From contig CAXWPL010000004.1 of the NCBI GenBank assembly GCA_963666215.2, positions 512,001 through 576,000 on the forward strand: a stretch of DNA of 64,000 bases. Direction: 5' to 3'. The translations under genes and the position numbers were made by a program. Below the pieces are notes generated by a model. The model had not been told where the DNA came from and searched no databases. It saw only the letters and a program-made list of their open reading frames with translations. Of the stretch, positions 44,004 through 64,000 are shown one piece after another (within the stretch, counting starts at the first letter, position 1; the number at the start of each line of letters is the position of its first letter). The DNA is from Acidobacteriota bacterium (GTDB lineage: Bacteria; Acidobacteriota; UBA890; WLXD01).

Positions 44004-44117
44004 GGCTGCACGTCGGCGTACCGCCTGGATGGCGGAACCACGACCGGCAACGTCGTACCGACGGCCCCTCTCTTGCTCGCCCAGTACGGCCTCTTCGTGC
44101 CTCACGGATTTCAAAGG

Positions 44118-44191
44118 CGCGCCCGGCAGGATTCGAACCTGCGACCTGCGGATTAGAAGTCCGCTACTCTATCCAGCTGAGCTACGGGCGC
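44118..44191 (-). tRNA. tRNA-Arg (anticodon TCT)
   Basis: GCGCCCG/CGGGCGC acceptor stem, GCTC D-stem, GCGGA-CTTCTAA-TCCGC anticodon arm, GGTTCGAATCC; followed by CCT, not CCA. Confidence 0.95.
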
Positions 44192-44206
44192 GTGAAGCGT
44201 AACTAC

Positions 44207-45382
44207 CTATTTATCAGAGGCTTGGGAAGAATCGGCGAAGTCCAAGACGCGGCCTGATTCGGCTGACCTTCCCTTTCCCTTCCCCGTCAGCTTCCCGAGC
44301 GCGCTCCTCAGATCGGCCTCGTTTGCGACGGCATACCTGTCGAACACGGAGCGCGTCGTGTGACCGCTGATCTTCATTGCGACCGTGTCGGGCACCCCGG
44401 CCCTGACCATGTTGCGGATCGCCGTCCGGCGAAAGTCATGCAGCAGCTTGCCCGGGCAGCCCGCAGCTTTGCAAGCCGACTTCCACGCCTTGCGGAAGCC
44501 CTTGATCTCGGCCCCGTCGCGGTGAAAGACATGAGGGCAGAGCACGCCCTCGGCGGCCAGGCGCCGGTGCTCCTCCCATTGCCGCTCGATGACGTCGACG
44601 AGCTCGGGCAATAGATCGTAGGGCAGGTTGCGACCCTCTTTGTTCTTGGTGGTGCCAGGCTCGAGGCGGATCGTCCGGGACCGACGATCTACCTGTCCCC
44701 AGGTCAGCGGAAGGACCTCCGACGGAATCCTCCATCCCGTGAAATACGCAAAGGTGATGATGGACTGTAGCGGCGCCGGCAGATGCTCCTGCACGGCCTC
44801 GAATTCCTCCCGCTCGAAGAAGCCGGTGCGGACATTGTCCTCTTTCAACATCGGGATGTGCGGCACGTGCAGGAGTGTGCCGGCCTGTAGGGCGAGCGTG
44901 AAGGCTCTCTTGAGCGCAGCGAGCTCACGGTTGATCGTTGCTGCTGCGGCGCCGGGCTTCTCGGTTCCGTCTTCGAGCCTGATCGGTGCTTGGCGGCTGG
45001 CGACGTACCTACGAACGTCCGCGGTCGCAATGGACGCCATCCGTCGACCGCCGAAGAACGGTTTCAGGTGGAGCCGAATCCGGGTTTCGACGTCACCGAG
45101 CGACCGCTTGCCGTTGACCCGGTAGTCGGTGATGACGTCGGCCGCGGCTTCGTCGAATCGAAGCCGACCGACCTTTGCGGAGACGGGAACGCCCTCCGCA
45201 ACCTTGCCCTCCCGGATCTTCAACAGACGTTGAGCTTCGCCCTTTCTCGTGGTGTGGGAGCTCTCCTCGTGGCGGCGGCCGTCGCGGTAATAACGTAGCC
45301 ACCAGATGCTCGACGTTCGCCGTACCTTCTTGCCAGTCTCCGAGTCGGTGACATAGTAGTACGGTCTGCGGACTTCGCCCAT
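44207..45382 (-). CDS. int: Tyrosine recombinase / phage integrase
   Basis: TINRELAAL, TGWR (R), TTKN (K), HDFRR (HxxR), SGH, FDRY (Y); ends 15 bp from the tRNA 5' end. Confidence 0.95.
   Translation of the reverse strand: MGEVRRPYYYVTDSETGKKVRRTSSIWWLRYYRDGRRHEESSHTTRKGEAQRLLKIREGKVAEGVPVSAKVGRLRFDEAAADVITDYRVNGKRSLGDVETRIRLHLKPFFGGRRMASIATADVRRYVASRQAPIRLEDGTEKPGAAAATINRELAALKRAFTLALQAGTLLHVPHIPMLKEDNVRTGFFEREEFEAVQEHLPAPLQSIITFAYFTGWRIPSEVLPLTWGQVDRRSRTIRLEPGTTKNKEGRNLPYDLLPELVDVIERQWEEHRRLAAEGVLCPHVFHRDGAEIKGFRKAWKSACKAAGCPGKLLHDFRRTAIRNMVRAGVPDTVAMKISGHTTRSVFDRYAVANEADLRSALGKLTGKGKGRSAESGRVLDFADSSQASDK
44212..44224 (+). promoter_or_regulatory. IHF consensus site next to the putative att
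   Basis: TATCAGAGGCTTG matches WATCARNNNNTTR. Confidence 0.5.
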
Positions 45383-45404
45383 TTACTTCCTTCCTTTCGA
45401 TTCC

Positions 45405-45983
45405 CTAACGGAGCCCAATGTTGACGATAGTGTTGATCGCGGAAAGCAGTTCTGGGTCTGCATCGAGAATCTGACCTTCACCGGCGAGACGCACAATGAT
45501 TCGCCAACGTTTCGACTTCCTGAACGCGGCAAGCTGGCCCTCCCAAAAGTCACGGTCGCCAAGATCATCTTCTGGCGAATCCGCGTCTGATCCGGCTCGC
45601 GTTCTCCTCAACCCCAGATTCGCGAGCGTGCTCTCGATCCATGCGCGTTCGGCGAGAGAAATGGAACCGCCGCGCTCGGCGAAGACTTCCTTCAAGGTAT
45701 CCGGCCAGTCGCCCAAGCTGTGATACTCGACCGTCTCGCCGAGCAGTTCGCAGAGGGAGCAATCTAGGGCGACCGCGAGGGCCTCGAGCGTTTCCACCTT
45801 CGGCGATTCTGCAGTCTTTGGGTTCTCGAGCCGGGACAACGTCGACGGCCCGACCTTCGATTTCTTTGCCAGCTTGCGAAGCGACAAGCCGTGCTCCTCG
45901 CGCGCTCTTTTCAGAGCCTTGGCAATCAGTTGAGCCCTGCTCTGCATCCGCCCTTCTGCTGAGATTTGTTTGTTGTGTGCCAT
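45405..45983 (-). CDS. XRE-family HTH repressor (CI-like); start may be 45947
   Basis: LKRAREEHGLSLRKLAKKSKVGPSTLSRLEN..PKVETLEALAVAL. Confidence 0.85.
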   Translation of the reverse strand: MAHNKQISAEGRMQSRAQLIAKALKRAREEHGLSLRKLAKKSKVGPSTLSRLENPKTAESPKVETLEALAVALDCSLCELLGETVEYHSLGDWPDTLKEVFAERGGSISLAERAWIESTLANLGLRRTRAGSDADSPEDDLGDRDFWEGQLAAFRKSKRWRIIVRLAGEGQILDADPELLSAINTIVNIGLR

Positions 45984-46106
45984 AAACAGTAGCGTCTTAC
46001 GTGCTACGAACGGTTGCACCATCGCTACGTCCGTGTATTACTAACGATAGCAGGAATCGTGCCATGTGTAAACACGGACCTGAGAGCAGAACGAGGCGCA
46101 AGGGGA

Positions 46107-46340
46107 ATGACGGCGACTGAGGCGGTAATAGTCCGAGCCCGACACCGTCTCCGCGCGACCCCGGCGACGGCCCGCGTGATGCGACAGGAAGCGGGCCTAA
46201 GCCAGCAAGACGTTGCCGACGTGCTCAGCGTAACCCGTGCCGCTGTGTCGCGATGGGAGCGGGGGTCACGACTTCCCAGCGGCCCACGAGCTGTTGACTA
46301 CATCCGTTTCTTTAAGCGCGCCTGCGGGGGCACACCATGA
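46107..46340 (+). CDS. Cro-like XRE HTH protein
   Basis: RQEAGLSQQDVADVLSVTRAAVSRWERGSRLPS; divergent from the repressor. Confidence 0.85.
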   Translation: MTATEAVIVRARHRLRATPATARVMRQEAGLSQQDVADVLSVTRAAVSRWERGSRLPSGPRAVDYIRFFKRACGGTP

Positions 46341-46531
46341 GCGCCTCGCCAAAACGCCTCCTCCGGCTTCTGACCGTCCGCGCCATTGCTTCGGCGAGCA
46401 CGATCCCGCCGTCGACGATTTATCGCTACGTGGCTTCGGGGGATCTCGTTCACTACCGGCTGGGTAAAAGCGTGCGCATCGCTGAGGAAGATTGGGACAA
46501 GTTCATCCAGGCGCGGCGCGAGGCCTCATGA
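46337..46531 (+). CDS. Excisionase-like HTH_17 protein
   Basis: LLTVRAIA..IPPSTIYRYVASGDLVHYRLGKSVRI; ATGA-coupled on both sides. Confidence 0.85.
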   Translation: MSASPKRLLRLLTVRAIASASTIPPSTIYRYVASGDLVHYRLGKSVRIAEEDWDKFIQARREAS

Positions 46532-48222
46532 CATCGACGGTCGACACCCGCTCGATGCCCGCGGACCTCGAGGCCGAGCGGGCGATTCTCGGCGCGGTGC
46601 TACTGGCGCCGAGTTCGATCGACGAGATTGCCAGAATTGTGGTCTCGGAGGTGTTCTCCTCGGATGCCAACCGCATCATCTTCGAGACGATGCTCGTCCT
46701 TCATCGGAACGGCAGTCCGATTGAACTGACCACGCTCCGCAGCGAGCTCGCGGACCGTGACGCGCTCGAGCTCGCCGGCGGCGCCGCCTACATTTCCAGC
46801 CTGATCGATGGCTTGCCGTCTGCGGTGAACGTCCAGCACTATGCCGACATCATCAAGAGCAAGGCGAGGCTGCGTACCATCGCCAATGCCGCCAACGCGG
46901 TGCTCTCCTCGGCGATGAACGGCGTCAAGGATCTCGACGATCGCCTGGCGCAGTTGGCTGTCAGTGCCTGGGCCGAGACGGAACACTCCGCCGAGTTCGA
47001 GCGTCTCGAGGAGGGTCGCTACCGCTTGACCGAGTCGCGCTTCGGAATCGGGATCGAGGCCGACCACCTGCGTCGCGAGCGCGGCCAGCTGTACGGTGAG
47101 GTGACTACCAAGTGCGCGATCGGGGGGGGGGCTCGGACTACCGGCGATGGCATTTTGTCGAGTGGCAATGTGAACCTCTCGAGCCAGCAGGTCCGCGACA
47201 CTCAAGGCAAGTACCTCGCGGCGCGTGCCCGGATAGGGACCGAACTCGACTGGACTGGGCTGCTCGAGGAGTTCTGTCATCGTGTCCTAACGGCAGAGCG
47301 TCAAGGTGACCCGGCGGTTTCGCTGCGTGACGTTCAGCTGCCCTCGACCGCTGACGAGATGGTGGTCGATATCGACGGACTTGCCGTCTTGCTGCGGCAC
47401 CCGGCCATCATCTACGGCGATGGGGGCGTGCTGAAGTCCATGCTCGTGCTCTACATCCTGGGCCGCCTGGCGCAGCGTGGTATCCGCGTTCTGTTCTGCG
47501 ATTGGGAGCTCGATGCTGCCGACCATCGCAGTCGCCTCGAGCAGCTGTTCGGTGACGCGATGCCGGACGTTGCGTACCTACGGTGTGACCGTCCTCTAGT
47601 GCAGATGGTGGACCAAGTACGTCGGACAGTGCGTGACCAGGGCATGCAGTTCGTCGCCTTCGATTCGATCGGCATGGCGTGCGACGGGCCGCCAGAAAGC
47701 GCCGAGACAGCCATGCGCTACATGCAGTCGGTACGGCGACTCGGGGAGATTGGCAGCCTGCATGTCGGACACGTCAGCAAAGGTGAGGATGCCCATCGCA
47801 AACCATTCGGCTCCGTGTACTGGCACAACACTGCGAGAGCAACATGGAACGCCAAGCTTGCTGAGGGTGGCTTTGATGAGGGGCGGGTCACGATCGGGCT
47901 GTACAACAAGAAGGCAAATCTCGGACCGAGGCAACAAGCAGTGGGATTCGAGTTCGCCTTCGGCGCAGACGGCACACAGGTTCGTCGTGTGGACCTGGCT
48001 GAAGTAGACGACCTGGCTGCGGAGCTCCCCCTACACCAGCGTCTCCGCACGTACCTGAAACACGGGGCAAGGACCCGCGACCAGATTTCGGCACACTTCG
48101 AGGACGTCAAATCCTCGACGCTTAGATCGGCGCTGCATAGGGGTACGAAGCGAGGGCAGCTCGTCCAATTCCCAGCTCCCGATGGCGACAAAATCGGCCT
48201 CTCCAAGGAGCCTCAATCATGA
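46528..48222 (+). CDS. DnaB N-terminal domain fused to a RepA/AAA_25-like ATPase-helicase with a C-terminal HTH-like tail
   Basis: PADLEAERAILGAVLL...AGGAAYISSL..PSAVNVQHYADII; IYGDGGVLKS, LFCDWE, VAFDS, HVSK, PFGS. Confidence 0.75.
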   Translation: MTSTVDTRSMPADLEAERAILGAVLLAPSSIDEIARIVVSEVFSSDANRIIFETMLVLHRNGSPIELTTLRSELADRDALELAGGAAYISSLIDGLPSAVNVQHYADIIKSKARLRTIANAANAVLSSAMNGVKDLDDRLAQLAVSAWAETEHSAEFERLEEGRYRLTESRFGIGIEADHLRRERGQLYGEVTTKCAIGGGARTTGDGILSSGNVNLSSQQVRDTQGKYLAARARIGTELDWTGLLEEFCHRVLTAERQGDPAVSLRDVQLPSTADEMVVDIDGLAVLLRHPAIIYGDGGVLKSMLVLYILGRLAQRGIRVLFCDWELDAADHRSRLEQLFGDAMPDVAYLRCDRPLVQMVDQVRRTVRDQGMQFVAFDSIGMACDGPPESAETAMRYMQSVRRLGEIGSLHVGHVSKGEDAHRKPFGSVYWHNTARATWNAKLAEGGFDEGRVTIGLYNKKANLGPRQQAVGFEFAFGADGTQVRRVDLAEVDDLAAELPLHQRLRTYLKHGARTRDQISAHFEDVKSSTLRSALHRGTKRGQLVQFPAPDGDKIGLSKEPQS

Positions 48223-48224
48223 GT

Positions 48225-48429
48225 GTTGCACGCTGCAACGCCCCTGCAACGCGCATGAGCGTTGCAATTGGGGACGGGGTGCAACGCTTGAGCACACGAG
48301 AGCCGAGAAGCGCCCTAGCGGCGGGGACTTTCTTGGGCGTTGCAGTTGCAACAGAAGAGCGTTGCAGCTTTTCCGTATTGCAACGCGTTTGCACACCCAC
48401 CCCCTTTAGGGGGTGGTGCAACGCGCAAC
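48225..48429. repeat. Iteron array (TGCAAC/GTTGCA, about 11 copies, both orientations); putative replication origin
   Basis: Copies at 48225, 48234, 48245, 48261, 48280, 48339, 48345, 48361, 48379, 48417; hairpin CACCCCCT-TT-AGGGGGTG. Confidence 0.75.
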
Positions 48430-48605
48430 GGGGACAGAAACCGAACAGACCCTCAAACGAGCCGAGATTCGCGTGGAGGCTTGGACTCGTCGTAAGTCCT
48501 TACGTGTCAATAATTGACAAGCGACACACGGCCTCTTTTGCTCGGATCTCACGCTCCCCGGAAAGGGAAGGTTTCGGGGAAGGTGGGAGAGAGTAGCGGC
48601 TGTAA

Positions 48606-49172
48606 ATGGTTGAGCATAAATATATTCCAGATGCCGACGCAACGGATTCACAATCCTCTGCGCCCGCTATCGAGCGTCCTAATCCACCGTCTGACACAGC
48701 CGAAACCTCCGGTCCGGAGACGGTCCGTTGCCGCAGCCGCAGCTGCGGCTGGGAGGGCGACCCTTCCGAAGCCGGCAAGGGCAGCTGCCCGAAGTGTGGA
48801 TGTTTCCTCCCGACGAACACCGTTGCGCTGATCCATGGTGGTCGGAGTCTTGCGGCACGGAGCGGGACGGCGCTCGACCCGGCTGAGTATGTCGCCATCC
48901 GCGACGCCGTGCTCGATGACCTCGGCGGCGAGGCCGAAGTGTCGACGGCCATGTACGAGCTCGTCTGCCTCTTTGCTGCCGCGTGTGTGCTGTGCAAGGT
49001 CATGTGGCGGCACATCGAAGCGACGGGCCCTCTGACCAAGGTCGGTCGCAAGCGAGCTTGCGTCGATCTCTACTTGGCCGCCAGCACACGAGCCGATCGC
49101 CTCGCGAAGCAGATCGGGACAGATCGCCGGGCCGTGAGGGCGACGCTGGCGGAGGTCATGGCCGATGAGTAG
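48606..49172 (+). CDS. Putative terminase small subunit with Zn-ribbon
   Basis: CRSRSC...CPKC then FLPTNTVALIHGGRS (NxxAxxHG motif); overlaps the terL start. Confidence 0.6.
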   Translation: MVEHKYIPDADATDSQSSAPAIERPNPPSDTAETSGPETVRCRSRSCGWEGDPSEAGKGSCPKCGCFLPTNTVALIHGGRSLAARSGTALDPAEYVAIRDAVLDDLGGEAEVSTAMYELVCLFAAACVLCKVMWRHIEATGPLTKVGRKRACVDLYLAASTRADRLAKQIGTDRRAVRATLAEVMADE

Positions 49173-50763
49173 CCGCCCGATCCTGACGCTGATGTCGAAG
49201 GTGCTCGGCAACCAGTTCGCCGGCGAGACGTGGGACGGCTGGCGTGTGCTGTTGAAAGCCATGTTCGCTCTGCCCCTCACCGACGCCGAGCTCGAGGCAT
49301 TCGAGGAGCTCACGGGCAGGTCGACGGCGCCGACCGTTCCGGCCCGCGAGGTGTGGGCGATCGCCGGTCGGCGCGGTGGCAAGAGCATCATCGCGGCGCT
49401 GGTGGCCGTGTACCTGACCACGTGCCGGACGTACAAGCTCGCTCGAGGTGAGGTAGGCACCTTCATGGTGATCGCCGCCGACCGCCGACAGGCGCGTGTC
49501 GTAGCTCGATACATCAAGGGTCTGCTCCACTCGACGCCGGTGCTCGAGCAGCTCATCGCACACGAGACGAAGACGGAGATCCAACTCGCCAACGGCCTGT
49601 CGATCGAGATCCATTCGGCAAGTTTCAGAAGCGTGCGCGGCTACACGGTTGTCGGCGCCATCCTCGACGAGATCGCGTTTTGGCCGACGGACGACGCAGC
49701 GAATCCGGACCGCGAGATCCTCGCCGCGTTGCGTCCCGCGATGGCCACCGTGCCGGGGGCGATGTTGCTATGCGTGTCGAGCCCCTACGCCCGCAAAGGC
49801 GAGCTCTACCGGGCACACCGTCATCACTACGGAGTCGACGGTGACGTGCTGGTGGTACAGGCCGAGACACGTCTGCTGAATCCAGCCGTTCCCCAGGAGA
49901 TCATCGACCGGGCTTATGAGGCGGATCCGGTTGCCGCCGCGGCCGAATACGGGGCGCAGTTCCGCAGTGACGTCTCTGAGTTCATTTCCCGCGAGGTCGT
50001 CGATGGCTGCACAGTGCCCGGGCGGCACGAGCTACCGCCCGTGCGCGGCGTGTCATATGTCGCCTTCATCGATTTCGCCGGAGGCTCCGGGCAGGACTCC
50101 GCCACGCTGGCCATCGCGCACCTTGAGAAGCGGGACGGACGCAGCGTAGCGGTACTGGACCTGGTGCGAGAGGTCCGGCCGCCGTTCTCTCCGGAGCAGG
50201 TGTGTCGCGACTTCGCCGGCGATCTGAAGCGCTACCGGGTCACCCGCGCGACAGCCGATCGCTACGCTGCCGACTTCGCGACAGAGGCGATGAGACGGCA
50301 GGGGATCGACCTCAAGGCGGCAGACAAGGCGAAGGCCGATCTGTACCGTGAGTTCTTGCCTGCGCTCAACAGTGGCGGCATCGAGCTGCTAGATCTGCCG
50401 CGACTAGCAGCCCAGCTCGGTGGCCTCGAGAGGCGTGTGGCCCGTGGTGGCCGCGACAGCATAGATCATGCTCCCGGCGGCCACGATGACGTCGCCAACG
50501 CTGTCGCCGGTGCGCTGGTTGCGATAGCGGAAGGGAAGCGCCGGCGCTGGGGCATCGTCCTGAGCGCAAGAGAGACCGCCGCGACGGGTTGCGCCGATAC
50601 GAGCTCGCTCGCCGAGCGCGCACGACAACTCGGCGTCAGTGGCAGTTGGGATGAAATGTTCCGCGCCGTGGCACGTGCCCACGGGGGCGAGCAACAGCAG
50701 GCCGGAAGCTCGGCAGAAGAAGAATTCATCCCCGGCGGACCGCAGCGCATCGGGATGCTCTGA
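49165..50763 (+). CDS. terL: Phage terminase large subunit
   Basis: Walker A GRRGGKS, Walker B ILDE, coupling motif VSSP, nuclease FIDFAGGSGQDS and HDDVANA. Confidence 0.85.
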   Translation: MSSRPILTLMSKVLGNQFAGETWDGWRVLLKAMFALPLTDAELEAFEELTGRSTAPTVPAREVWAIAGRRGGKSIIAALVAVYLTTCRTYKLARGEVGTFMVIAADRRQARVVARYIKGLLHSTPVLEQLIAHETKTEIQLANGLSIEIHSASFRSVRGYTVVGAILDEIAFWPTDDAANPDREILAALRPAMATVPGAMLLCVSSPYARKGELYRAHRHHYGVDGDVLVVQAETRLLNPAVPQEIIDRAYEADPVAAAAEYGAQFRSDVSEFISREVVDGCTVPGRHELPPVRGVSYVAFIDFAGGSGQDSATLAIAHLEKRDGRSVAVLDLVREVRPPFSPEQVCRDFAGDLKRYRVTRATADRYAADFATEAMRRQGIDLKAADKAKADLYREFLPALNSGGIELLDLPRLAAQLGGLERRVARGGRDSIDHAPGGHDDVANAVAGALVAIAEGKRRRWGIVLSARETAATGCADTSSLAERARQLGVSGSWDEMFRAVARAHGGEQQQAGSSAEEEFIPGGPQRIGML

Positions 50764-50764
50764 A

Positions 50765-51133
50765 ATGACGAAGGCGCATGCAACGCTGTCGGCCAGCATA
50801 GGCTCACCGGCGAAGAAGTCGCCGCACGTGTTGAAAGCGGCGTTGAAGGGCATTCTGTCGCGACCCACGCGCTGGCACCTGCGCCGAGTCGGCAAGTTCC
50901 CGGAGCCGATCAAGGCGACTGCCGAGCGCTCCCTGCACTGGGCCACAGACATCAACGCCTGGATGGATGACCCGCGGGAGTGGGGCGCGGAAACACGGGC
51001 GGGGGACTTCGTGAGTCGCCCTCGTCGCGGCGGATGGTTGGTAACTTGCCCGTGCTGCGGGGCGAACGAGGGGGCGGAGTTCGCGGACATTTGGGCAGGC
51101 GCAGAACTGAGCTCTTCTGCGAGGACGCAATGA
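50765..51133 (+). CDS. alpA: AlpA-like DNA-binding regulator with a Cys-containing tail
   Basis: LSRPTRWHLRRVGKFPEPIK...WATDINAWM resembles AlpA LSRSTIYR..GKFPKPIK..W..SEI..W. Confidence 0.65.
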   Translation: MTKAHATLSASIGSPAKKSPHVLKAALKGILSRPTRWHLRRVGKFPEPIKATAERSLHWATDINAWMDDPREWGAETRAGDFVSRPRRGGWLVTCPCCGANEGAEFADIWAGAELSSSARTQ

Positions 51134-53508
51134 GCTTCACGTGCGTCGACGTCGCTCGGGCCGCGGGATTGGAGAAGGGCCGTCGCGTCGGCGCGGAGAG
51201 ATTGTTCCGGTGTTGCCAGCATGACGACACTCGGCCCTCTCTGTCGATCAATGAGCGCAAGAACCGGTGGATTTGCGGGCCGTGTGAGGCTGGTGGCGGG
51301 GCCTGGAAACTGGCGGCGTTCCTTGGTGGCTTCGATCCGGACGACAAGCAGGCCGTACTCTCGTGGCTCCGCGACCACGATCTGCTTGATGGCGAGCGGG
51401 TCTCGTCGAAGTTCGTTGCCACTCACGACTACACGGACCACGCCGGTGAGCTGCTGTTCCAGGTCGTGCGCCTGCGGCCCAAGTCCTTCCGACAACGGCG
51501 TCCGGACGGCAACGGCGGGTGGGTGTGGAACGTCGACGGTGTGCGCCGCGTGTTGTACCGGCTGCCCGAGCTTGGCACGGCCACGGTCGTGCACATCACC
51601 GAGGGAGAAAAGGACGCCGACGCACTTCACGGCATCGGTCTCACGGCCACATGTAACCCCGGGGGTGCGGGGAAGTGGCGGGACGAGTACACGGAGTCCT
51701 TCACTGCCGAGCACCAGGTCGTTGTCTTGCCGGACAACGACGACGCCGGTCGCCGGCACGCCGAGACGGTGGCCGCATCACTGCACGGTCAGGTCGCGTC
51801 GGTGAAGGTGCTCCAGCTGCCGGACCTAGCTCCCAAGGGGGATGTCACGGACTTCATCAACGCGTGCAGAGACGCGGAGGAAGCTGCCGAGCGGCTTGCC
51901 ACCATAGCGAATGGGGCGGATCAATGGGAGCCGCAGGCTGCCGACGAACCGACTGTGGAGGACCGCTGCACAACCATCGAGATCCGGCCCGACCTGACTG
52001 GCGTAACCGATGAGGCCATCGACGCGATAGCCGCGCAGCCGAGCCTCGGAGTCTACGTCCGCGGCCGCCAACTCGTGCGCGTCGCGCGGGACGGGTCTCC
52101 GCCGGAGTGCTGGCTGGAGCGATGGCCCGGGTCTCCGGTGATCGTTCCCATGGCGAGCGCACAGGTACTCGACGTCCTCGACCGAGCCGCCGCGTGGGTG
52201 AAGTGCGACGGCCGCCGCAAGGAGTATGTTGCCGCGATACCGCCATCGTGGGTCGCGCAGCAGGTGGGTGCAAGGCTGGAGTGGCCGCTGCCGTACCTGG
52301 AGGCGGTTACCGAGACGCCGACCATCCGGTCTGACGGGTCGATCCTGGAGACGCCGGGGTGGGACCAGGCGTCCCGTCTCCTATACGAGCCGATCCCGGG
52401 AGCAGCGACGTGGCCGCCGGTGCCGGAGCAACCGACTGGGGAGGACGTACGCCGTGGCATCGCGATGCTGCGGGACCCATTGGAAGACTTCCCTTTCAAA
52501 GCGGAATCGGACGGTGCGGCCGCCATCGCGGTCATTCTGACTCTGTTGGCGCGGCACCTCATTCACGGGCCGGTTCCGTTGATGGCCATTCGGGCGCCGA
52601 CGCCGGCGACCGGCAAAACGCTGTTGGCCGACGTTATCGGGATCATGGGCACAGGGCGTGTCCCGCCCGTTATGACGATGACCTTCGAGTCGGAGGAGCT
52701 GCGGAAGCGGGTTACCTCCCTTGCGGTCGAGGGTGCTGCGCTAATCCTCCTCGACAATGTGTCGGGCACCCTTGGGTCCGACACCCTAGCCGCCGCGCTG
52801 ACGGCGACCGACTGGGAGGACCGCATCCTCGGGACGAACACGGTTGTCCGCGTGCCGCTGCGCGTGGTGTGGATGGTGACCGGCAACAATCTCGGCTTTC
52901 GTCGCACGCTCGGACGGCGTGTGATCCCGATCGACCTGGACGCGGGGGTGGAGCAGCCGGAGGACCGGGTCGGATTCCGCCACGCGGACCTGAGGGGGCA
53001 CGTCCGCGAGCGCCGGCCGCACCTGGTGACCGCGGCCCTGACGATCCTGCGAGCGTTTCACCTAGCAGGTCGGCCGGCGCACGGGGGACCACGCATGGGC
53101 AGCTTCGAGGCCTGGGATGACCTGATCCGATCCGCGGTCATCTGGGCCAGTTTGGCCGACCCTGCGTCCGCGGATCCGGAGCACGGACGGGGGCGAGTAC
53201 GGTCGCAAGCGGATGACGATACGGAGACGCTGCGGCTGCTGCTGCGCGCGTTGGCCGACGCCTTTCCCCACGGCGGGGGCTTTACGGCCGCGGACGTGGT
53301 GACCCGCTCGCGCAGTGACGAGGATCTAGCCGCTGCGCTGGACGTAGCGGCTGCGCCGAGACGTGGTGGGAAGCCGACCGGCCGATCGTTGGGGTACGCG
53401 TTCCGGAATGCAGTTGACCGACCGGTCAGAGGCCTCGTGCTGCGCCGGTGGATGCAAGAGCGATCTGGGGTTGTCTGGCTGGTCGAGAGCCCGGAGGAGA
53501 CGCGGTGA
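51130..53508 (+). CDS. Primase-helicase (Zn-binding + TOPRIM + C-terminal P-loop ATPase)
   Basis: CCQHDDTRPSLSI..WICGPC; EGEKDAD, VLPDND; PTPATGKT, LILLDN, VTGNN. Confidence 0.85.
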   Translation: MSFTCVDVARAAGLEKGRRVGAERLFRCCQHDDTRPSLSINERKNRWICGPCEAGGGAWKLAAFLGGFDPDDKQAVLSWLRDHDLLDGERVSSKFVATHDYTDHAGELLFQVVRLRPKSFRQRRPDGNGGWVWNVDGVRRVLYRLPELGTATVVHITEGEKDADALHGIGLTATCNPGGAGKWRDEYTESFTAEHQVVVLPDNDDAGRRHAETVAASLHGQVASVKVLQLPDLAPKGDVTDFINACRDAEEAAERLATIANGADQWEPQAADEPTVEDRCTTIEIRPDLTGVTDEAIDAIAAQPSLGVYVRGRQLVRVARDGSPPECWLERWPGSPVIVPMASAQVLDVLDRAAAWVKCDGRRKEYVAAIPPSWVAQQVGARLEWPLPYLEAVTETPTIRSDGSILETPGWDQASRLLYEPIPGAATWPPVPEQPTGEDVRRGIAMLRDPLEDFPFKAESDGAAAIAVILTLLARHLIHGPVPLMAIRAPTPATGKTLLADVIGIMGTGRVPPVMTMTFESEELRKRVTSLAVEGAALILLDNVSGTLGSDTLAAALTATDWEDRILGTNTVVRVPLRVVWMVTGNNLGFRRTLGRRVIPIDLDAGVEQPEDRVGFRHADLRGHVRERRPHLVTAALTILRAFHLAGRPAHGGPRMGSFEAWDDLIRSAVIWASLADPASADPEHGRGRVRSQADDDTETLRLLLRALADAFPHGGGFTAADVVTRSRSDEDLAAALDVAAAPRRGGKPTGRSLGYAFRNAVDRPVRGLVLRRWMQERSGVVWLVESPEETR

Positions 53509-53630
53509 TGACGTTGATCGCGGTGATGGATCCTCCGTACGCGCGGGGAAGTGGCGGCTACAGGGCGGTTTCCGGTGTGCGAATCGGGGTCCTGGGGCGG
53601 TATCCATCGCCACCATCGCCGCCATCACCA
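53501..53630. repeat. Second iteron set (GGTGATG / CCATCRCC); putative origin
   Basis: CGCGGTGATG at 53501 and 53519; inverted tandem CCATCGCCA CCATCGCCG CCATCACCA at 53604-53630. Confidence 0.6.
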
Positions 53631-53655
53631 CCGGCAGCGGCCTGCTGACGGGACA

Positions 53656-53739
53656 GGCCATGACGACGTCGCCAATGCCGTGGCCGGGGCGCTGGTAGCG
53701 GTGGCGAGGGAACGTCGACCACGCTGGGGCTTTGCCTGA
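53656..53739 (+). pseudogene. C-terminal relic of a second terminase large subunit
   Basis: GHDDVANAVAGALVAVARERRPRWG versus GHDDVANAVAGALVAIAEGKRRRWG in terL (from 50479). Confidence 0.8.
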
Positions 53740-53882
53740 GCGCAGAGGAGGAAGAAAGTCGTTCACGTCGCCAGCCGCGCTCGTCTTGTTGACATTGCCG
53801 GCTTGGAACCGGACACGGAGGTCCAGCCCCCTCCGGGGCCGCCGGGTTGGCGTGAACAGGTTCAATTAGGTTCAGGACCTAG

Positions 53883-55207
53883 CAGGCTGCTGAAAAACTC
53901 CTAGCGTTCATGTAGCTTGACCCATGCAGCCCCGTGCCAACCGGAAGCATCGACGAGGTGAGCAGATGCGTGGTGAAGACGCGGGTCAAGTGGCAGCGTT
54001 CAGCTATATCTCGCCCGAGCAGAGGGTACCGAAGGACCATCCGCTGCGGCGGCTGCTGAAGATCGTCAACAACGTGCTGGAACAGATGTCGCCACTGTTC
54101 GCCGGCATGTACTCGCACACGGGGCGGCCGTCGATCCCGCCGGAGAAGCTGTTGCGGGCATTGCTGCTGCAGGTGCTGTATACGATCCGCTCCGAGCGCA
54201 TGCTGATGGAGCAGCTCGACTACAACCTGCTATTCCGCTGGTTCGTGGGCTTGAACATGGACGATGCGGTGTGGGATGCGACGGTGTTCACCAAGAACCG
54301 AGACCGGGTGCTCGGTGGTGAGGTCGCCGAAGTGTTCTTCGAGCAAGTCGTGGAGCAAGCGCGCAGGCGCGGACTGCTATCGGACGAGCACTTCACCGTT
54401 GATGGAACGCTGATCGAAGCGTGGGCATCGCACAAGAGCTACCAGCCCAAAGACCCGAGCGGGCGGCAGGATCCACCCAGTGGTGGCGGCCGGAACCCGG
54501 ACGTCGATTTCCGCAAACAGCGGCGCAAGAGCGATACACACGCCTCGAGAACCGATCCTGACGCCCGCCTGTATAGGAAGAGCAAGGGATCCGAGGCGAA
54601 GCTCTGCTACATGGGCCACCTGGTAGTCGACAACCGCCACGGGCTGCCGACCAACGCGATGGTAACGAAGGCTTCAGGCACAGCGGAACGAGATGCGGCA
54701 GTGGCGATGGCCGGCGAGATCCCCGGGACAGATCGCGTGACTATGGGTGGCGACAAGAACTACGACACCAAGGAGTGCGTCGGCAAGCTGAGAGATCGGA
54801 ACGTAACGCCGTATGTGGCGCAGAACGACACCAACAGACGCAGCGCGATCGATGGCCGCACCACGAGGCACGCCGGGTACAAGCAAAGCCAGGTCAAACG
54901 CAAGCTCGTCGAGCAGGTCTTTGGCTGGGGCAAGACAGTAGGACTGATCCGCCAGACGAAGCACCGAGGGGTCGACCGCGTCGGCTGGATGTTCGTCTTC
55001 ACCGCGGCAGCGTTCACCTTGGTGAGAATGCGCAATCTCGAGGCGCTGACGTGAAGGTAGTGGGACCCGGGAGCGCCAAACCGCCTCTCGAGGTGACGAG
55101 CGAAGGGTCGTTTGCGATCGCCCCCCTTCAACGGTGCGCGCCATGCCTACTCCACGCTGCCGCTCGGGGACCGGATCGACACTCGTGAGCCGTTTTTCAG
55201 CAGCCTG
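53883..55207 (+). mobile_element. IS5-family insertion sequence
   Basis: Perfect 16-bp IRs CAGGCTGCTGAAAAAC / GTTTTTCAGCAGCCTG; CTAG duplicated at 53879-53882 and 55208-55211. Confidence 0.95.
53966..55054 (+). CDS. IS5-family transposase
   Basis: GRPSIPPEKLLRALLLQ, SERMLMEQLDYNLLFRWFVGL, VDGTLIEAWAS, GGDKNYD, VEQVFGW. Confidence 0.95.
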   Translation: MRGEDAGQVAAFSYISPEQRVPKDHPLRRLLKIVNNVLEQMSPLFAGMYSHTGRPSIPPEKLLRALLLQVLYTIRSERMLMEQLDYNLLFRWFVGLNMDDAVWDATVFTKNRDRVLGGEVAEVFFEQVVEQARRRGLLSDEHFTVDGTLIEAWASHKSYQPKDPSGRQDPPSGGGRNPDVDFRKQRRKSDTHASRTDPDARLYRKSKGSEAKLCYMGHLVVDNRHGLPTNAMVTKASGTAERDAAVAMAGEIPGTDRVTMGGDKNYDTKECVGKLRDRNVTPYVAQNDTNRRSAIDGRTTRHAGYKQSQVKRKLVEQVFGWGKTVGLIRQTKHRGVDRVGWMFVFTAAAFTLVRMRNLEALT

Positions 55208-55258
55208 CTAGTGGGTGCAAGCCCGTGGGGGTTCAAGTCCCTCCTTGGGCACTCGGTT

Positions 55259-55271
55259 CAAGTCATTGATA
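55259..55271 (-). promoter_or_regulatory. IHF consensus site next to the tRNA-Leu att core
   Basis: CAAGTCATTGATA is the reverse complement of TATCAATGACTTG (WATCARNNNNTTR). Confidence 0.55.
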
Positions 55272-55368
55272 TAAAAGCCTCGGAGATTCCGGGTGTGTTC
55301 ATTGGCGGCTACGCAAGTCCGGGCGGAATCCGTCGGGCGCGTTACAGGGACTCAGAGGTCAGAACAAC

Positions 55369-56202
55369 TCATTGGCCGACAACCCGAAGGGAGAGCTGCT
55401 TCGCCGGCAGTTCGAGAACGCCCGCCAGTTGCTCGGCGAACGCAGTTAGTTGCTTTCGCAGGGCGTCAGTGTCCCCAGAGCCTTTCCCTTCACCCAACCA
55501 GTGTGCGGCCAGTACGACATCTGCGTGGAATCTCGATTCGCCCTTGACCCCGGTGTGCTTCAGCGGGGGGCAAGTCAGGCGCCAAGCGCCCGGTAGATGC
55601 TCCTTCAGTAGCTTGTCGAATCGCTGGCCGACCCGATTTCCTGGATCCAGGTTCAGCGCGAACAACAGCACTGCGGCACGCTTGGCCATCTTGGCCATCA
55701 GCGGTACGATCGTCGGTGCTCGACGAAGTAGGAACTCGGAATAGGGATCAATGAGCACCAAGTCGCCGTCCTTTGCGTTGGGGATCACGTCGTTCTCGAA
55801 CGCCGCGTAGCCGTCGGACAGATCAGCGTTCGGGAAATCCTCTGTGATCAAGGACAAACCGGAATCGCGGAGCAGCTCGCGGTGCCCCTGATCCCGATCG
55901 GTGGTCAAGACGCGCACAGTGCCGCACTCGGTTGCCTTGCCCACGTTCCGGACCACCCAGCCACTGCCATAGTAGCGGCCGTGCTCGATGCTGGTTTGGG
56001 CCGCACGAAGTACGCATGCCGACCCGAGGCCCCGAACGCGCCTCGCAACTTTGCAGCAAACGGGTTCCTCCCAAGGCTTGCCACCGAACAGGTCAATGAA
56101 ACGTAGCGCGACGCCCTGTTCGCATTGCCAACGGACAACCTCCGCGAGGACGCCGTGCTTCAACAGATCGCCGGCATTCCCCATGTCGTACAGAAAAGTC
56201 AT
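55369..56202 (-). CDS. RlmJ-like putative adenine-N6 methyltransferase, divergent
   Basis: MGNAGDLLKHGVL (cf. RlmJ AGNHADVLKH), FIDLFGG, YYGS (cf. YPGS), LVLIDPY (cf. IDPPY). Confidence 0.6.
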   Translation of the reverse strand: MTFLYDMGNAGDLLKHGVLAEVVRWQCEQGVALRFIDLFGGKPWEEPVCCKVARRVRGLGSACVLRAAQTSIEHGRYYGSGWVVRNVGKATECGTVRVLTTDRDQGHRELLRDSGLSLITEDFPNADLSDGYAAFENDVIPNAKDGDLVLIDPYSEFLLRRAPTIVPLMAKMAKRAAVLLFALNLDPGNRVGQRFDKLLKEHLPGAWRLTCPPLKHTGVKGESRFHADVVLAAHWLGEGKGSGDTDALRKQLTAFAEQLAGVLELPAKQLSLRVVGQ

Positions 56203-56456
56203 TGGCGGTTGGGCAGGTGGCGCGTTAGCGCCATCGTAGGGGCAGCGGCAACAACGGAATCGTAACCGTGTGCGACCAAGAACTGCACTACTAGACCCCC
56301 TATTCGGCTTTGATCATCTTGGATTCTTCCCTATGGTCGTGCCTGGCAAAAGGTAGCGACCGGGTCTTGTATCGCAACCGCACCAGCACGTGACCGTTGC
56401 TGGAGCGAGGGACGAGCTCCTCTTGGCTAGCGAGCTCAACCACAGGAGAGGCAAGC

Positions 56457-57209
56457 GTGAACGACACGGGGGGCGCGGCCCCTGGCTCCATCCATTCGTT
56501 GGTTCCCGACCCGGAGGCCATGCTCGCGCTTGAGCCCGAGGAGCTCGCCGGTGTCCTGATGGAACACCTCAACTCTCTCCCTGCCTCCGAACAGAGAAGC
56601 CTAAACCGATACAACTTCAGTCTCCGGCACACAGTTCGAGACTATCCAGAGGACGCGCAGGACGAGCTGAGTCTGGCCCTTATGGAGGCGTGGGTCTGGC
56701 TTGAACGTGAGGGGCTCCTGGTGCCGAAGCCTGGGTCCGCGGGTGAGTCGGTAGTCATCTCGCGACGCGGTCAACGGCTGCGGACACGCGATCAGGTGCG
56801 CTCTTACCGTTGTGCGAACCTGCTTCCGCGTGGCCAGCTTCATCCGAGAATCGCGCAGAAGGTGTGGGCGTTGTTCCTCAGGGGCGACTACGATACGGCG
56901 GTGTTTCAGGCATTCAAAGAGGTCGAAGTGCGGGTCCGGGAGGCCGCGGAATGTGCAGACACGGACATCGGAGTCGCTTTGATGCGGAAGGCGTTCGTGA
57001 CAGGCGGTGCTCTGGCGGACGCTGAGGCGCCGAAGGCGGAGCAGGATGCGCTCGCTCATCTTTTTGCCGGCGCCATCGGGTCCTACAAGAACCCCCATAG
57101 CCACCGTAGCGTGACCATCGAACGAGCCGAGGCCGTGGAGATGATAGTGCTAGCCAGTCACCTACTCGGCATTGTGGACAAGCGTTCAGCCGACGATTCG
57201 GATGCTTAG
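56457..57209 (+). CDS. TIGR02391 / Ymh-family (HEPN-like) protein
   Basis: LHPRI..LFLRGDYDTAVFQAFKEVEVRVRE..GVALMRKAF..LFAGAIGSYKNPHSHR. Confidence 0.85.
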   Translation: MNDTGGAAPGSIHSLVPDPEAMLALEPEELAGVLMEHLNSLPASEQRSLNRYNFSLRHTVRDYPEDAQDELSLALMEAWVWLEREGLLVPKPGSAGESVVISRRGQRLRTRDQVRSYRCANLLPRGQLHPRIAQKVWALFLRGDYDTAVFQAFKEVEVRVREAAECADTDIGVALMRKAFVTGGALADAEAPKAEQDALAHLFAGAIGSYKNPHSHRSVTIERAEAVEMIVLASHLLGIVDKRSADDSDA

Positions 57210-57317
57210 CCAAGCCGCGCACCTGGCGGCACCGGGGGCCTGCGCTGAACTGTCGCGAAGGATGATGCTGATCCCCGACACGAATCCCTTAGCCGCAGCC
57301 GAGGTCTTGGACACGAC

Positions 57318-59447
57318 ATGAACCACAGCGAGATCACGAGCTTCATCTGGGGCGTGGCGGACCTGATCCGTGACACCTTCAAGCGAGGCAAGTACCAGGA
57401 CGTGATCCTGCCGCTCACCGTGCTGCGGCGCCTCGACTGCGTGCTGGCCCCCACCAAAGGGCAGGTGCTGGCGGTCCAGGCCAAGTACCGGGGCAGGATC
57501 GAGAACCTCGAGCCGCAGCTTCGACGCGCCTCCGGCTTCGCGTTCTACAACACCTCCCGCTACGACTTCGATAAGCTCCTCGCCGACGCGTCCCACATCG
57601 CTCAGAACCTGCGTAACTACATCGCAGGGTTCAGCTCCAACATGCGTGAGGTGCTGGAGAAGTTCGACTTCGACAACACCATCGCCAAGCTCGACGAGGC
57701 GGGACTCCTGTTCCAGGTCGTGCAGCGGTTCGGCGATCCGAAGGTGAATCTGCACCCGGACCTGGTCGACAACTTCACGATGGGCACGATCTTCGAGGAG
57801 CTCATCCGGAAGTTCAACGAGGCGCTGAACGAAAACCCAGGGGAGCACTTCACTCCCCGCGACGTTGTCCATCTCATGGTGGACCTGTTGCTGGCTGGCG
57901 ACGAGCAACGGCTGCGCACCAAAGGGGTCGTGCTGAGCGTCTACGACCCGTGCTGTGGGTCGGGCGGCATGCTCACCATCGCCAAGGAGCACATCAACGT
58001 CGGAGAAAGGCGCGAGGGCGAACTCTGCGGCAGCGCCGTGAACCCTGATGCCGACATTCACCTGTTCGGCCAGGAGGTGAACCCGGAGACCTTCGGCATC
58101 TGCAAGTCCGACCTGTTCATGAAGTCGGAAGACGGCCGCGACGCGGACAACGTCCTGTTCGGCAGCACGCTCTCCAACGACCGGCACGCCAGCACAACGT
58201 TCGACTACATGATCGCCAATCCACCCTACGGCAAGGACTGGAAGCGCGACCAGGACGCGGTGCGAGCCGAGCACGACCGGGGAGACGCCGGCCGCTTCGG
58301 TGCGGGGTTGCCGCGGATAAGCGATGGCCAGCTGCTGTTCCTGCTGCACATGCTCGCGCACTCCAAGGAGCAAGCTCAGGGCGGCTCGCGGGTCGCGATC
58401 ATCATGAACGGCTCGCCGCTCTTCACCGGCGATGCGGGCAGCGGTGAGAGCGAGATCCGCCGCTGGATCCTCGAGAACGATCTGCTGGAAGCGCTGATCG
58501 CACTGCCCGAGCAGCTGTTCTACAACACGGGCATCGCGACCTACGTCTGGGTGCTCACGAACCGGAAACGGCCTGAGCGACGCGGCAGAGTCCAGATCAT
58601 CGACGCCACCTCGTTCTGGGTCCCACTGCGCAAGAGTCTGGGTGCGAAGCGTCGCGAGGTTCCGGTCGAGCGAAAGGAGGAGGTCCTGGGGCTGCTGGCG
58701 GAGTTCGAGGATGGCGCGACCCGCAAGGTCTCCCAGGACGGCGAAGAGCACGAGGTTGTCGTCAGCCGCGTCTATCCGACCACGCACTTCGGCTTCCGCA
58801 AGATCACGGTGGAGCGTCCGCTGCGGCTCGACTTCCAGGCCAGCCCCGAACGGATCGCACGGCTCGAAGAGGAGCGCGCTTTCGTGAGCCTGGCGGTGTC
58901 ACGCAAGAAGGGCGAAGCGAAAGCGAAGGACGAGGAGGCGGGCCGGAAGCAGCAGGCCGAGATCCGGGCCCTGCTGAAGAATCTATCGGCCAAGCTGTTC
59001 CTGGAGCGTGCGGTCTTCGAGGACGAGTTTTCCCAGGCGGCCCAAGAAGCGAAGCTCAAGCTAGCTGCTCCCATCAAGAAGGCAATTTTCTCCGCGTTGT
59101 CTGAGCGCAACGACGAGGCAGAGATCTGCCGGGACCGGGAGGGTCGCCCTGAGCCTGATCCCCAGCTTCGCGACACGGAGAGCGTGCCCCTCCTGGAGGA
59201 TGTTGAGTCGTTCTTCGAGCGGGAGGTGAAGCCGCACGTTCCCGACGCCTGGATCGACACGAAACGCCGGGATGCGCGGGATGGACAGGTCGGGCTCGTG
59301 GGCTACGAGATCAACTTCAACCGGTACTTCTACGAGTACCGACCACCCCGCCCGCTGGAGGAGGTACAAGCCGACATCCGCGCCATCGAGAGAGAAATCG
59401 TCGAGGCTCTGGGTACCTTGACGAAGTCATCGGGGACAACGATGTGA
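57318..59447 (+). CDS. hsdM: Type I restriction-modification methyltransferase subunit
   Basis: ILPLTVLRRLDC, GEHFTPR, YDPCCGSGGML, ANPPY, FYNTGI, VGYEINFNRYFY. Confidence 0.95.
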   Translation: MNHSEITSFIWGVADLIRDTFKRGKYQDVILPLTVLRRLDCVLAPTKGQVLAVQAKYRGRIENLEPQLRRASGFAFYNTSRYDFDKLLADASHIAQNLRNYIAGFSSNMREVLEKFDFDNTIAKLDEAGLLFQVVQRFGDPKVNLHPDLVDNFTMGTIFEELIRKFNEALNENPGEHFTPRDVVHLMVDLLLAGDEQRLRTKGVVLSVYDPCCGSGGMLTIAKEHINVGERREGELCGSAVNPDADIHLFGQEVNPETFGICKSDLFMKSEDGRDADNVLFGSTLSNDRHASTTFDYMIANPPYGKDWKRDQDAVRAEHDRGDAGRFGAGLPRISDGQLLFLLHMLAHSKEQAQGGSRVAIIMNGSPLFTGDAGSGESEIRRWILENDLLEALIALPEQLFYNTGIATYVWVLTNRKRPERRGRVQIIDATSFWVPLRKSLGAKRREVPVERKEEVLGLLAEFEDGATRKVSQDGEEHEVVVSRVYPTTHFGFRKITVERPLRLDFQASPERIARLEEERAFVSLAVSRKKGEAKAKDEEAGRKQQAEIRALLKNLSAKLFLERAVFEDEFSQAAQEAKLKLAAPIKKAIFSALSERNDEAEICRDREGRPEPDPQLRDTESVPLLEDVESFFEREVKPHVPDAWIDTKRRDARDGQVGLVGYEINFNRYFYEYRPPRPLEEVQADIRAIEREIVEALGTLTKSSGTTM

Positions 59448-63700: not shown

Positions 63701-64000
63701 GCTCAAGAACTTCCTGTTTGACGACTACATCCAGCGGCACCGACGAGCAGAGGAACTGCTCAAGCTCCAGGAGTCCAAGACGCTCGAGTTCAAGTCGAGC
63801 CTGCGCTGGAACCTGAAACAAGACCGCAAGGACGACAAGCACGTCACCCACGCGGCGCTCAAGAGTATCGCCGCGTTCCTCAACACCGAGGGCGGCGACC
63901 TGCTGATCGGCGTGGACGACGACCGCAAGGTTGTCGGCATCGAGCATGACCGCCTCGACAGCGACGATAAGTTCATGCGGCACTTGGCCCAGGTCGTGCG
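60697..64000 (+). pseudogene. hsdR: Type I restriction endonuclease subunit R, two +1 frameshifts (~62070, ~63128), C-terminal Schlafen/AlbA_2 domain; runs off window
   Basis: ELKN, QHSAGSGKS, DEAHSSQ, FTATPK, KFQTGFDQP, QTLSRLNR; frame from 63129 reads ..ESKTLEFKSSLRW..SIAAFLNTEGGDLLIGVDDD. Confidence 0.88.

Follow-up and report, generated by a model that had tools for sequence, protein, structure and literature searches.

Phage satellites named in the available part of a 2024 essay are the P4-like satellites, PICI, cfPICI, PLE, PICMI, VEIMEs, tycheposons and soil satellites. According to the accessible sections of PMC10085698, PICIs carry terS only and use the TerL of their helper, and terL separates cfPICI from PICI, the former being defined by terL together with capsid, adaptor and connector genes. 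PICI-like tycheposons carry terS or the major capsid protein gene (10.1101/2020.12.28.424599, in its accessible part), and VEIMEs carry terS homologues and 'motor-like ATPases' (PMC9618062, likewise in part). As far as these partial sources go, described satellites borrow the TerL of a helper (PICI, P4, PLE and PICMI) or bring a whole capsid (cf-PICI). Here, an integrated element of an Acidobacteriota bacterium was analysed in a window, which is the whole 64,000-nucleotide (nt) stretch taken from contig C4 of the home genome (G000; 4.65 Mb in five contigs, ~65% G+C, 91.7% complete); positions are those of the window, and positions beyond its end are given as window-equivalent. The region is partly 95-99% identical to an Acidobacteriota metagenome-assembled genome, and the home genome was grouped with such relatives in the search at phylum level. 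A first-pass annotation had proposed positions 44207-55251 as a candidate new satellite type carrying both terminase subunits and no portal, capsid or tail gene. The comparisons made here favour, at a probability of roughly 55%, the reading that 44207-50763 belongs to a widespread family of ~9-18-kb tRNA-integrating elements, that the conserved core of the family consists of an integrase, a lysogeny-type switch, a replication protein (a DnaB-like helicase or a primase-helicase) with its origin, and both terminase subunits, the small one P27-like, that this core has no portal and the Acidobacteriota lineage no capsid or tail genes either, and that such elements are best explained as helper-dependent satellites with a terminase of their own.

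The tRNA-Arg(TCT) gene on the minus strand (44116-44191, identified by ARAGORN) faces with its 5' end a tyrosine integrase of 391 amino acids (aa) (44207-45382, minus strand; PF00589, E = 3.2e-16; phrog_1, 8.8e-50), which is accompanied by a CI-like HTH_3 repressor of 205 aa (45405-46022, minus strand; PF01381, 3.4e-13). Divergent from the repressor and on the plus strand are a Cro-like HTH_3 regulator (46014-46340; PF01381, 1.1e-12), an excisionase-like HTH_17 protein of 64 aa (46337-46531; PF12728, 7.9e-9, above the curated cut-off), a DnaB-like replicative helicase of 576 aa (46492-48222; DnaB N-terminal domain, 1.4e-28, with AAA_25 and phrog_19), a TerS-like protein of 188 aa (48606-49172), identified by conserved position and fold, and an intact, mosaic TerL of 532 aa (49165-50763; phrog_2, 1.2e-27), with the start of terL overlapped by the 3' end of the terS-like gene. 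The 384-bp gap between the helicase and terS-like genes is occupied by an iteron cluster of about 190 bp (48234-48424) with eight copies of TGCAACGC on both strands. Eight of the nine sites in the window fall in this cluster, and 3.35 would be expected over the whole 64 kb; the cluster is a candidate origin and/or terminase recognition site. The order of int, repressor, cro, xis, helicase, iterons, terS-like gene and terL had been read in the same way by the first-pass annotation, and the Pfam and PHROG searches and the site count agree with it, including the call of 46337-46531 as xis and the clustering of the iterons. Its inventory of 44207-55251 was correct for the genes that it listed, but an AlpA-like open reading frame (ORF), a primase ORF of 842 aa and an insertion sequence (IS) in the right part of the stretch had been overlooked.

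Pfam and PHROG searches of all ORFs from tRNA-Arg to window-equivalent position 77665 identified no portal, capsid, protease or tail family, consistent with the earlier claim that none lies between the tRNA and the defence genes; tested for prophage membership, the interval from 44116 to the same end point gave no portal, major capsid, tail or lysis gene. From the integrase to the att fragment described below, coding sequence without annotation is limited to a single 125-aa ORF that overlies the iterons (48219-48596; no family match). A complete but unrecognised minimal virus, with capsid and portal encoded by unannotated ORFs, is given a very slim chance. ORFs without a family do exist, namely the 125-aa ORF and a 277-aa ORF in the window and conserved proteins of ~240 aa and ~280-350 aa after terL in other loci, but one unannotated 125-aa ORF before the att fragment is far too little for portal, capsid and tail, and the home genome has no HK97-type capsid or portal family.

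The Walker A motif of TerL is GRRGGKS, the Walker B motif is DE, and the acidic residues of the nuclease are retained. G68, R69 and K73 (Walker A), E169 (Walker B) and D303, D365 and D442 (nuclease) are invariant across 21 relatives, one of which is a real phage. The TerL profile matched solved terminases over both domains (T4 gp17, 3.7e-7; HK97 TerL, 5.4e-5) and also matched the nuclease domains of P74-26 and D6E, in line with the earlier description of both the ATPase and nuclease motifs as intact. The 188-aa protein had no Pfam or PHROG match. Its family is located directly 5' of terL in 16 further loci of the first set compared, and its AlphaFold model, built with 15 homologues, has a confident helical core at residues 90-170 (mean pLDDT over the model, 76.8). 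When the model was compared with BFVD, the majority of the top 30 matches were named small terminase, P27 family or COG3747. The protein is accepted as TerS-like by the modelled fold and conserved position, not by sequence. The predicted TerL-TerS complex scored 0.26 against a mark of 0.32, a value that speaks neither for nor against such a complex. The ratios of nonsynonymous to synonymous substitution rates (dN/dS) in two unsaturated pairs, L011-L012 and L045-L046, were 0.145 and 0.166 for terL and 0.29 and 0.22 for terS, respectively, indicating that both TerL and the TerS-like protein are under purifying selection. Locus L013 (Polyangiaceae), in which the terL match contains nine stops, was left out of the alignments.

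The element was compared with each described satellite type on the basis of the accessible parts of the publications. Like cf-PICI (10.1101/2022.09.08.507074; PMC10085698), it is integrated at a tRNA or in the chromosome and combines the terS-terL pair with an integrase, with regulators and with a gene for a primase or for replication; unlike cf-PICI, it has terL without head or connector families in the ORFs of its island, and would need the procapsid, portal and tail of a helper. With PICI and SaPI (PMC10085698) it shares a size of ~10-15 kb, an integrase, regulation, its own iteron replication, terS and accessory cargo after the packaging genes, but the element counts among its core genes one for a full-length TerL in which the catalytic motifs are conserved. 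When the PICI component tests of the same paper were applied, the integrase was present and packaging was not of the terS-only kind, TerL being core. For the regulation module, defined there by homology to alpA, merR or stl, the element offers an HTH_3 CI/Cro pair and an HTH_17 protein with a MerR-like fold, as assigned by Pfam only, and for the primase-replicase module the DnaB-like helicase with iterons and a CHC2-Toprim primase, as assigned by general profiles only. The marine tycheposons and VEIMEs resemble it in their small size, in integrating at tRNA genes, in combining a tyrosine recombinase, a helicase or primase and an excisionase with just one packaging gene, and in forming tandem arrays at one tRNA with partial tRNA copies; a TerS and TerL pair is absent from their descriptions, as far as these are accessible. 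The AlpA-like ORF with a large primase resembles the alpA/alpha module of P4-like satellites, which are named in PMC10085698 and PMC11389934 (both in part). The element differs from them in carrying TerS and TerL. P4 itself is not known to carry a terminase and exerts capsid size control through Sid and Psu. Of the P4-like set of psu, delta and sid capsid-size genes with alpA and an alpha primase, the AlpA-like ORF and primase pair alone was seen in the Pfam and PHROG searches. The gene set is unlike that of PICI, cfPICI, P4-like satellites, PLE, PICMI, VEIME and tycheposon and is set apart by their descriptions, in the parts consulted; judged in this way, no match to a defined satellite family was found. 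The literature searched, which was accessible in part, contained no satellite family with TerS and TerL and without capsid, and the gene lists of VEIMEs and tycheposons might name TerL-like proteins as 'motor ATPases'. The family is apparently undescribed and probably spreads by taking the capsids of helper phages.

Matches to the TerL profile at E ≤ 1e-20 were obtained in 22 of 401 genomes of the same phylum (a tally that includes G000 and G152); 20 neighbourhoods were retrieved and the TerL ORF was present in 19. Integrases, TerS-like genes and genes for a DnaB-like protein or a primase-helicase lie 5' of terL in these loci. On the 3' side, the 106 ORFs of at least 100 aa within 6 kb of terL matched 73 PHROG families; the best 25 comprise transposases, integrases, polymerases, an invertase and a kinase, and head, tail, portal and capsid families are absent from them. 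The downstream ORFs formed merely seven small clusters shared between loci, and the ten largest co-directional ones encode a serine recombinase, a DDE transposase, Prim-Pol with AAA_25, GmrSD, DUF4268 or unknown proteins.

Among 8000 candidates scored, at least 5570 proteins match TerL at E ≤ 1e-10 and are called 'hypothetical protein' where the source names them. A scan of species-representative genomes with the TerL profile gave 277 relatives, the best 80 of which (48-71% identical) are mostly from Alphaproteobacteria and also from Acidobacteriota, Binatia, Rokubacteria, Myxococcota and Gammaproteobacteria. The census comprised 104 loci, with a TerL ORF in 99. The TerS-like gene lies within 1 kb 5' of TerL in 61 of these 99, and a tyrosine integrase lies within 8 kb 5' (median 4.5 kb) in 49 of the 81 loci with at least 8 kb of upstream sequence, and only 3' in seven. 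An opposite-strand tRNA follows terL within 10 kb in 31 of the 55 loci with at least 8 kb of downstream sequence; in 27 of the 31, an exact repeat of 14-60 nt of the tRNA 3' end, mostly at least 44 nt long, is located 5' of the integrase and delimits units of 9.5-18.3 kb. Repeated att-bounded int-rep-terS-terL units, on which the idea of a new satellite type had been made to depend, are found in these 27 tRNA-flanked loci of other phyla, and the recurrence of such units lacking portal and capsid supports that idea. Close homologues with portal and capsid genes consistently placed after terL were not seen among the loci compared. As a separate observation, two unknown families (~240 aa and ~280-350 aa; five members each) occur immediately 3' of alphaproteobacterial terL (representatives, L110:11440-12216 and L096:11567-12619), and neither family has a PHROG match.

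These distributions bear on the idea of a decayed prophage, in which the early region and terminase of a temperate phage remain and the structural genes were deleted and replaced. The order int-cI/cro-replication-terS-terL does correspond to the left part of the lambdoid map, but the same layout recurs in dozens of independent loci across phyla, the att-bounded units are too small for a virion module, the genes downstream of terL are unrelated between loci, and terL and terS are under purifying selection; such decay is considered highly improbable.

The scan for structural genes among relatives covered 74 loci and, in these, 120 ORFs of 200-999 aa that are co-directional with terL and begin no more than 5 kb 3' of it, with five longer ORFs excluded. 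Baseplate hub and tape measure were listed with seven members each, lytic tail protein with six, two tail fibre families with five and three, and three major head protein families with four, three and three, and no portal was among the best 25 of 149 PHROG families. Of the 39 ORFs from 24 metagenome loci, three were assigned to hub, two each to major head and tape measure, and one each to protease and portal. Locus L066 (IMG/VR; TerL 41.5% identical) served as a positive control, with a portal (phrog_113, 1.3e-50) and head-morphogenesis genes directly after terL; its portal has no homologue in any other locus. The occurrence of this TerL relative in a real phage would fit a decayed prophage. 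Single morphogenesis add-ons are a scaffold in L065, tail-fibre-like proteins in L064, L100 and L102 and a major head protein (3.8e-85) without portal in L104. The order after TerL in L104 is a protein of 221 aa, the head protein, a protein of 124 aa and a tape-measure-like protein. L095 has a baseplate hub protein. The sequences indicate that the lineage spans real phages, forms with a few morphogenesis genes and the minimal int-rep-terS-terL form.

Four alpha- and gammaproteobacterial loci with head, tape-measure-like or hub genes after terL (L104:11685-15707, L094:11532-15042, L095:13946-14950 and L133:11485-12618) are att-bounded units of 9.6-16 kb with no portal detected. Loci of this type may be other satellite designs, comparable to the EPIPs, which carry a tape measure according to the accessible part of PMC12822802. 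A 'tail fiber' family of 650-720 aa (phrog_5616, 6e-56) was also observed near terL in an IMG/VR contig, Sphingobium and Sphingomonas (L064:7870-10023, L100:12718-14685 and L102:13046-15196, respectively; phmmer E = 0 and 4e-303).

The boundaries of the window copy differ from those of the units described above. A 47-nt direct repeat is composed of nucleotides 1-43 of tRNA-Arg and four upstream bases (copy 1, 44149-44195), and copy 2 (G000:C4:588371-588417, window-equivalent 76371-76417, L007:12371-12417) is identical at 44 of the 47 positions as determined by blastn and pairwise alignment. Copy 2 is the sole repeat of the tRNA-Arg region in the whole genome, lies 32 kb rightward and outside the window, and directly adjoins a second integrase that is 71% identical in protein; no repeat of this region of at least 14 nt was found inside the window. 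The repeat-bounded unit of ~32 kb contains type I restriction-modification (R-M), GmrSD-Schlafen, DEAD helicase and IS3 genes and no virion gene. Because this sole repeat is 32 kb away, the unit excisable today, if any, would be the 32-kb island and not the 11-kb stretch. The island repeats the 5' half of the tRNA and has the intact tRNA at the integrase end, which is the mirror image of the 27 other members, where the repeat consists of the tRNA 3' end and the intact tRNA lies at the end away from the integrase. For the integrase lineage of the window, with its two tandem copies, integration would apparently restore the 5' half of the target tRNA.

At the right side, the 'att core' of the first-pass annotation proved to be the 3' portion of a tRNA-Leu(CAG), beginning at tRNA position 29 and complete to its 3' end, as shown by alignment with two IS-free loci; the fragment is split by a 1333-bp IS and has no match at the left end. 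Its first part, the anticodon stem-loop, is at 53867-53882 and the second part, with the variable arm, T arm and acceptor end, is at 55212-55251, both on the plus strand. The IS (53879-55211, plus strand) encodes a transposase with DUF772 and DDE_Tnp_1 domains (53924-55054) and has perfect 20-nt inverted repeats and a CTAG target. At least eight further full or partial copies of it, 94-100% identical, were noticed on contigs C4 and C5. An IS-free allele was present in one metagenome run (X4), in a contig joining 53882 to 55221. All three aligned loci diverge in the flank immediately past the tRNA-Leu fragment; no full tRNA-Leu(CAG) gene and no 5' part of it was found in the window, L011 or L012. 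Since the tRNA-Leu fragment is unpaired with the left end, 44207-55251 is not one att-bounded unit. The two ends are different and the tRNA-Arg repeat is 32 kb away, so that the earlier delimitation of the stretch as a single unit was abandoned.

The terL gene of the window copy is a mosaic. Its identity to the TerL of L011, a locus of another genome, rises from 28-39% at residues 1-164 to 58-76% at 165-330 and 99-100% at 331-532, and the high identity continues through a small ORF of 122 aa (50765-51133, plus strand), the primase (99%) and a terL remnant to the insertion point of the IS. The small ORF has a C-terminal motif that looks, by eye, AlpA-like; it has no Pfam family at E ≤ 0.01. The primase is an 842-aa ORF (50980-53508, plus strand) with a CHC2 zinc finger, a Toprim domain and a C-terminal phrog_29234 domain, identified by Pfam and PHROG, and its true start is probably later than the start of the ORF. 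The remnant of a second terL 3' end comprises 84 nt (53656-53739, plus strand), and its first 51 nt (53656-53706) are 82% identical to the GHDDVANA region of the element's own terL (50479-50529). In L012, the end of an intact terL corresponds to the remnant and downstream att with 99.6% identity over 227 nt and complete identity (100%) over another 46 nt, and there terL (547 aa) is the last gene and ends 128 nt before the tRNA-Leu fragment. Both the second terL 3' end and the view that terL was the last gene in a sister element had been recognised from the letters alone, and the repeat search and the L012 arrangement confirm them. That terL in L012 abuts the att fragment speaks against a decayed prophage.

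Both copies of the 51-nt repeat start, on the left (50479 and 53656), exactly where homology to L012 has its edge, and the GHDDVANA motif is doubled only in the window and L011 among ~140 loci. A 3.2-kb block with the AlpA-like ORF and the primase (window 50479-53739; L011:11282-14544) is bracketed by two terL 3' ends, and it looks like a small replicon or cassette inserting into, or recombining through, the terminase gene. We infer that the block arrived by Campbell-type insertion or recombination at the 3' end of an L012-like terL and was later spread by recombination within terL. The terL nuclease half, AlpA-like ORF, primase, terL remnant and tRNA-Leu fragment of the window copy came as one block, ~99% identical in another genome, and the window copy is a recombinant, or chimera, inside a larger defence-laden island. 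Its rearranged state, with the IS, the terL remnant and the mismatched ends, would also be compatible with prophage decay, as would the frameshift in the terL of a sister island on contig C2.

The C2 sister shares terL and the AlpA-like ORF with the window and continues directly with the Ymh gene, so that nothing in it corresponds to window positions 51055-56380; its integrase, primase-helicase and TerS-like protein match L011 (98%, 90% and 36%, respectively) and not the window. The C2 sister island (G000:C2:~1-23350; L008 and L009) was observed to contain an integrase, with a tRNA T-arm-like fragment just past it, a primase-helicase (764 aa), a TerS-like protein (178 aa), terL, the AlpA-like ORF, a Ymh gene cut by IS3, and the defence-like genes for a DUF1156 methylase, a SNF2 helicase with NOV_C and a DUF499 protein. 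Other remnants in the home genome, at C5:1390329-1390679, C3:177729-177917 and C5:1423035-1423334, are a piece of terL covering residues 39-155 at 70% identity and two pieces of TerS-like genes. None of the four copies or remnants of the terL lineage in the home genome adjoins structural genes.

The remaining cargo of the island within the window (55369-64000) consists of the 277-aa unknown gene, Hypoth_Ymh, hsdM, hsdS and a piece of hsdR, and GmrSD-Schlafen, DEAD helicase and IS3 transposase genes follow beyond the window, all assigned by Pfam. The type I R subunit seems split or truncated: in its ORF at 60697-62148 (483 aa) no domains besides HSDR_N and the ResIII/SNF2 ATPase were recognised, and after some small ORFs comes a separate 419-aa ORF (62883-64142) that leaves the window. 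Defence genes after terL, namely type I R-M, GmrSD and Ymh in the window island, DUF1156, SNF2 and DUF499 in the C2 island and GmrSD in L050, raise the question of interference or defence, a role that the first-pass annotation had named as well and in which TerS-TerL would sabotage phage packaging by cutting, mis-packaging or procapsid titration and the island would move otherwise. The lack of an excised or packaged form in the contigs examined points in the same direction. The integrase, replication module and att repeats in units of 9.5-18 kb are, however, what a self-transmitting element needs and not what a static defence gene needs, and interference as the main role is regarded as unlikely. 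Interference and transfer are not mutually exclusive in known satellites.

The best match of TerL to an isolated phage is 31% identical over half of the protein, and no helper lineage can be named on the basis of so low an identity. The home genome contains no relatives of the L066 portal or MuF protein. In Logan contigs, the joints listed have short sides of 21-34 nt and mostly involve the IS. Among the 23 runs listed with this sequence, none was an RNA data set. Circular junctions, which the first-pass annotation had suggested looking for, were seen in none of the contigs examined.

Several results weigh against a helper-dependent satellite with its own terminase. The fold matches of the TerS-like model are weak (E 0.013-0.1 for the top small-terminase matches and 0.013-0.4 over the wider list; TM score 0.3-0.6, ~0.5 when target-normalised), and the comparison with PDB gave nothing at E ≤ 0.001. 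An integrase was undetected in 25 of the 81 census loci with the custom-built profile. The PHROG tallies cover the best 25 families, and rare portal matches could be hidden. The terL of the C2 sister, 95% identical, is frameshifted at residue 431, and the ends of the window copy are mismatched, with the tRNA-Leu fragment at 55251 unpaired. No helper phage was identified, and the home genome, at 91.7% completeness, is without PF05065 (HK97-type capsid) and without PF04860 and PF05133 (HK97- and SPP1-type portal). No terminal repeat or circular form was found in the 10.1-kb IMG/VR contig L064, no terminal repeat in the metagenome contigs of at least 5.5 kb among 80 loci, and no excision joint at the tRNA-Arg or tRNA-Leu sites in Logan contigs of four runs from four studies. 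A minority of distant relatives carry tape-measure, hub or capsid genes and rarely a portal, and the family therefore grades into phages.

In the satellite cycle that would fit the gene content, the CI-like repressor would keep the element integrated, and helper infection or induction would lead to excision by the integrase with the HTH_17 protein, followed by replication from the iteron region by the element's own helicase. The element's own TerS-TerL holoenzyme would recognise and cut its DNA, with the iterons just 5' of terS as the candidate site, and would dock on helper procapsids via the helper portal, such that capsids would receive element DNA alone and the helper would run short of them. 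Cargo, here anti-phage defence genes, occupies the variable stretch that follows terL. A wider formulation is held tentatively, at somewhat less than even odds: a phylum-spanning satellite class with thousands of members would bring TerS and TerL and take no more than the empty procapsid and the tail of the helper, the specificity of packaging would be encoded entirely by the satellite, TerL-portal docking would be the sole interface, and the mosaic terL would mark an interface swap. The class would possibly extend over Acidobacteriota, Alpha- and Gammaproteobacteria, Binatia, Rokubacteria and Myxococcota, and within terL the N-terminal part might travel with terS and the nuclease half be exchanged at ~99% identity, both with the same reserve.

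If the satellite reading is true, a full packaging motor alone would constitute a third satellite strategy, and docking of a foreign TerL on a helper portal would become directly testable. The family is abundant in cultivable soil- and plant-associated Bradyrhizobium, Methylobacterium, Mesorhizobium, Nitrobacter and Sphingomonas; members are present in Methylobacterium platani PMB02 (L089), Bradyrhizobium japonicum SZCCT0148 (L096), Nitrobacter vulgaris DSM 10236 (L079), Shinella fusca DSM 21319 (L088), Rhizobium cremeum S302 (L103) and Sphingobium ummariense RL-3 (L100). It could be a source of 'orphan' terminase genes, which may be scored as prophages by virus-detection tools. Given this abundance and the defence cargo, it could be a major overlooked route for the movement of defence islands.

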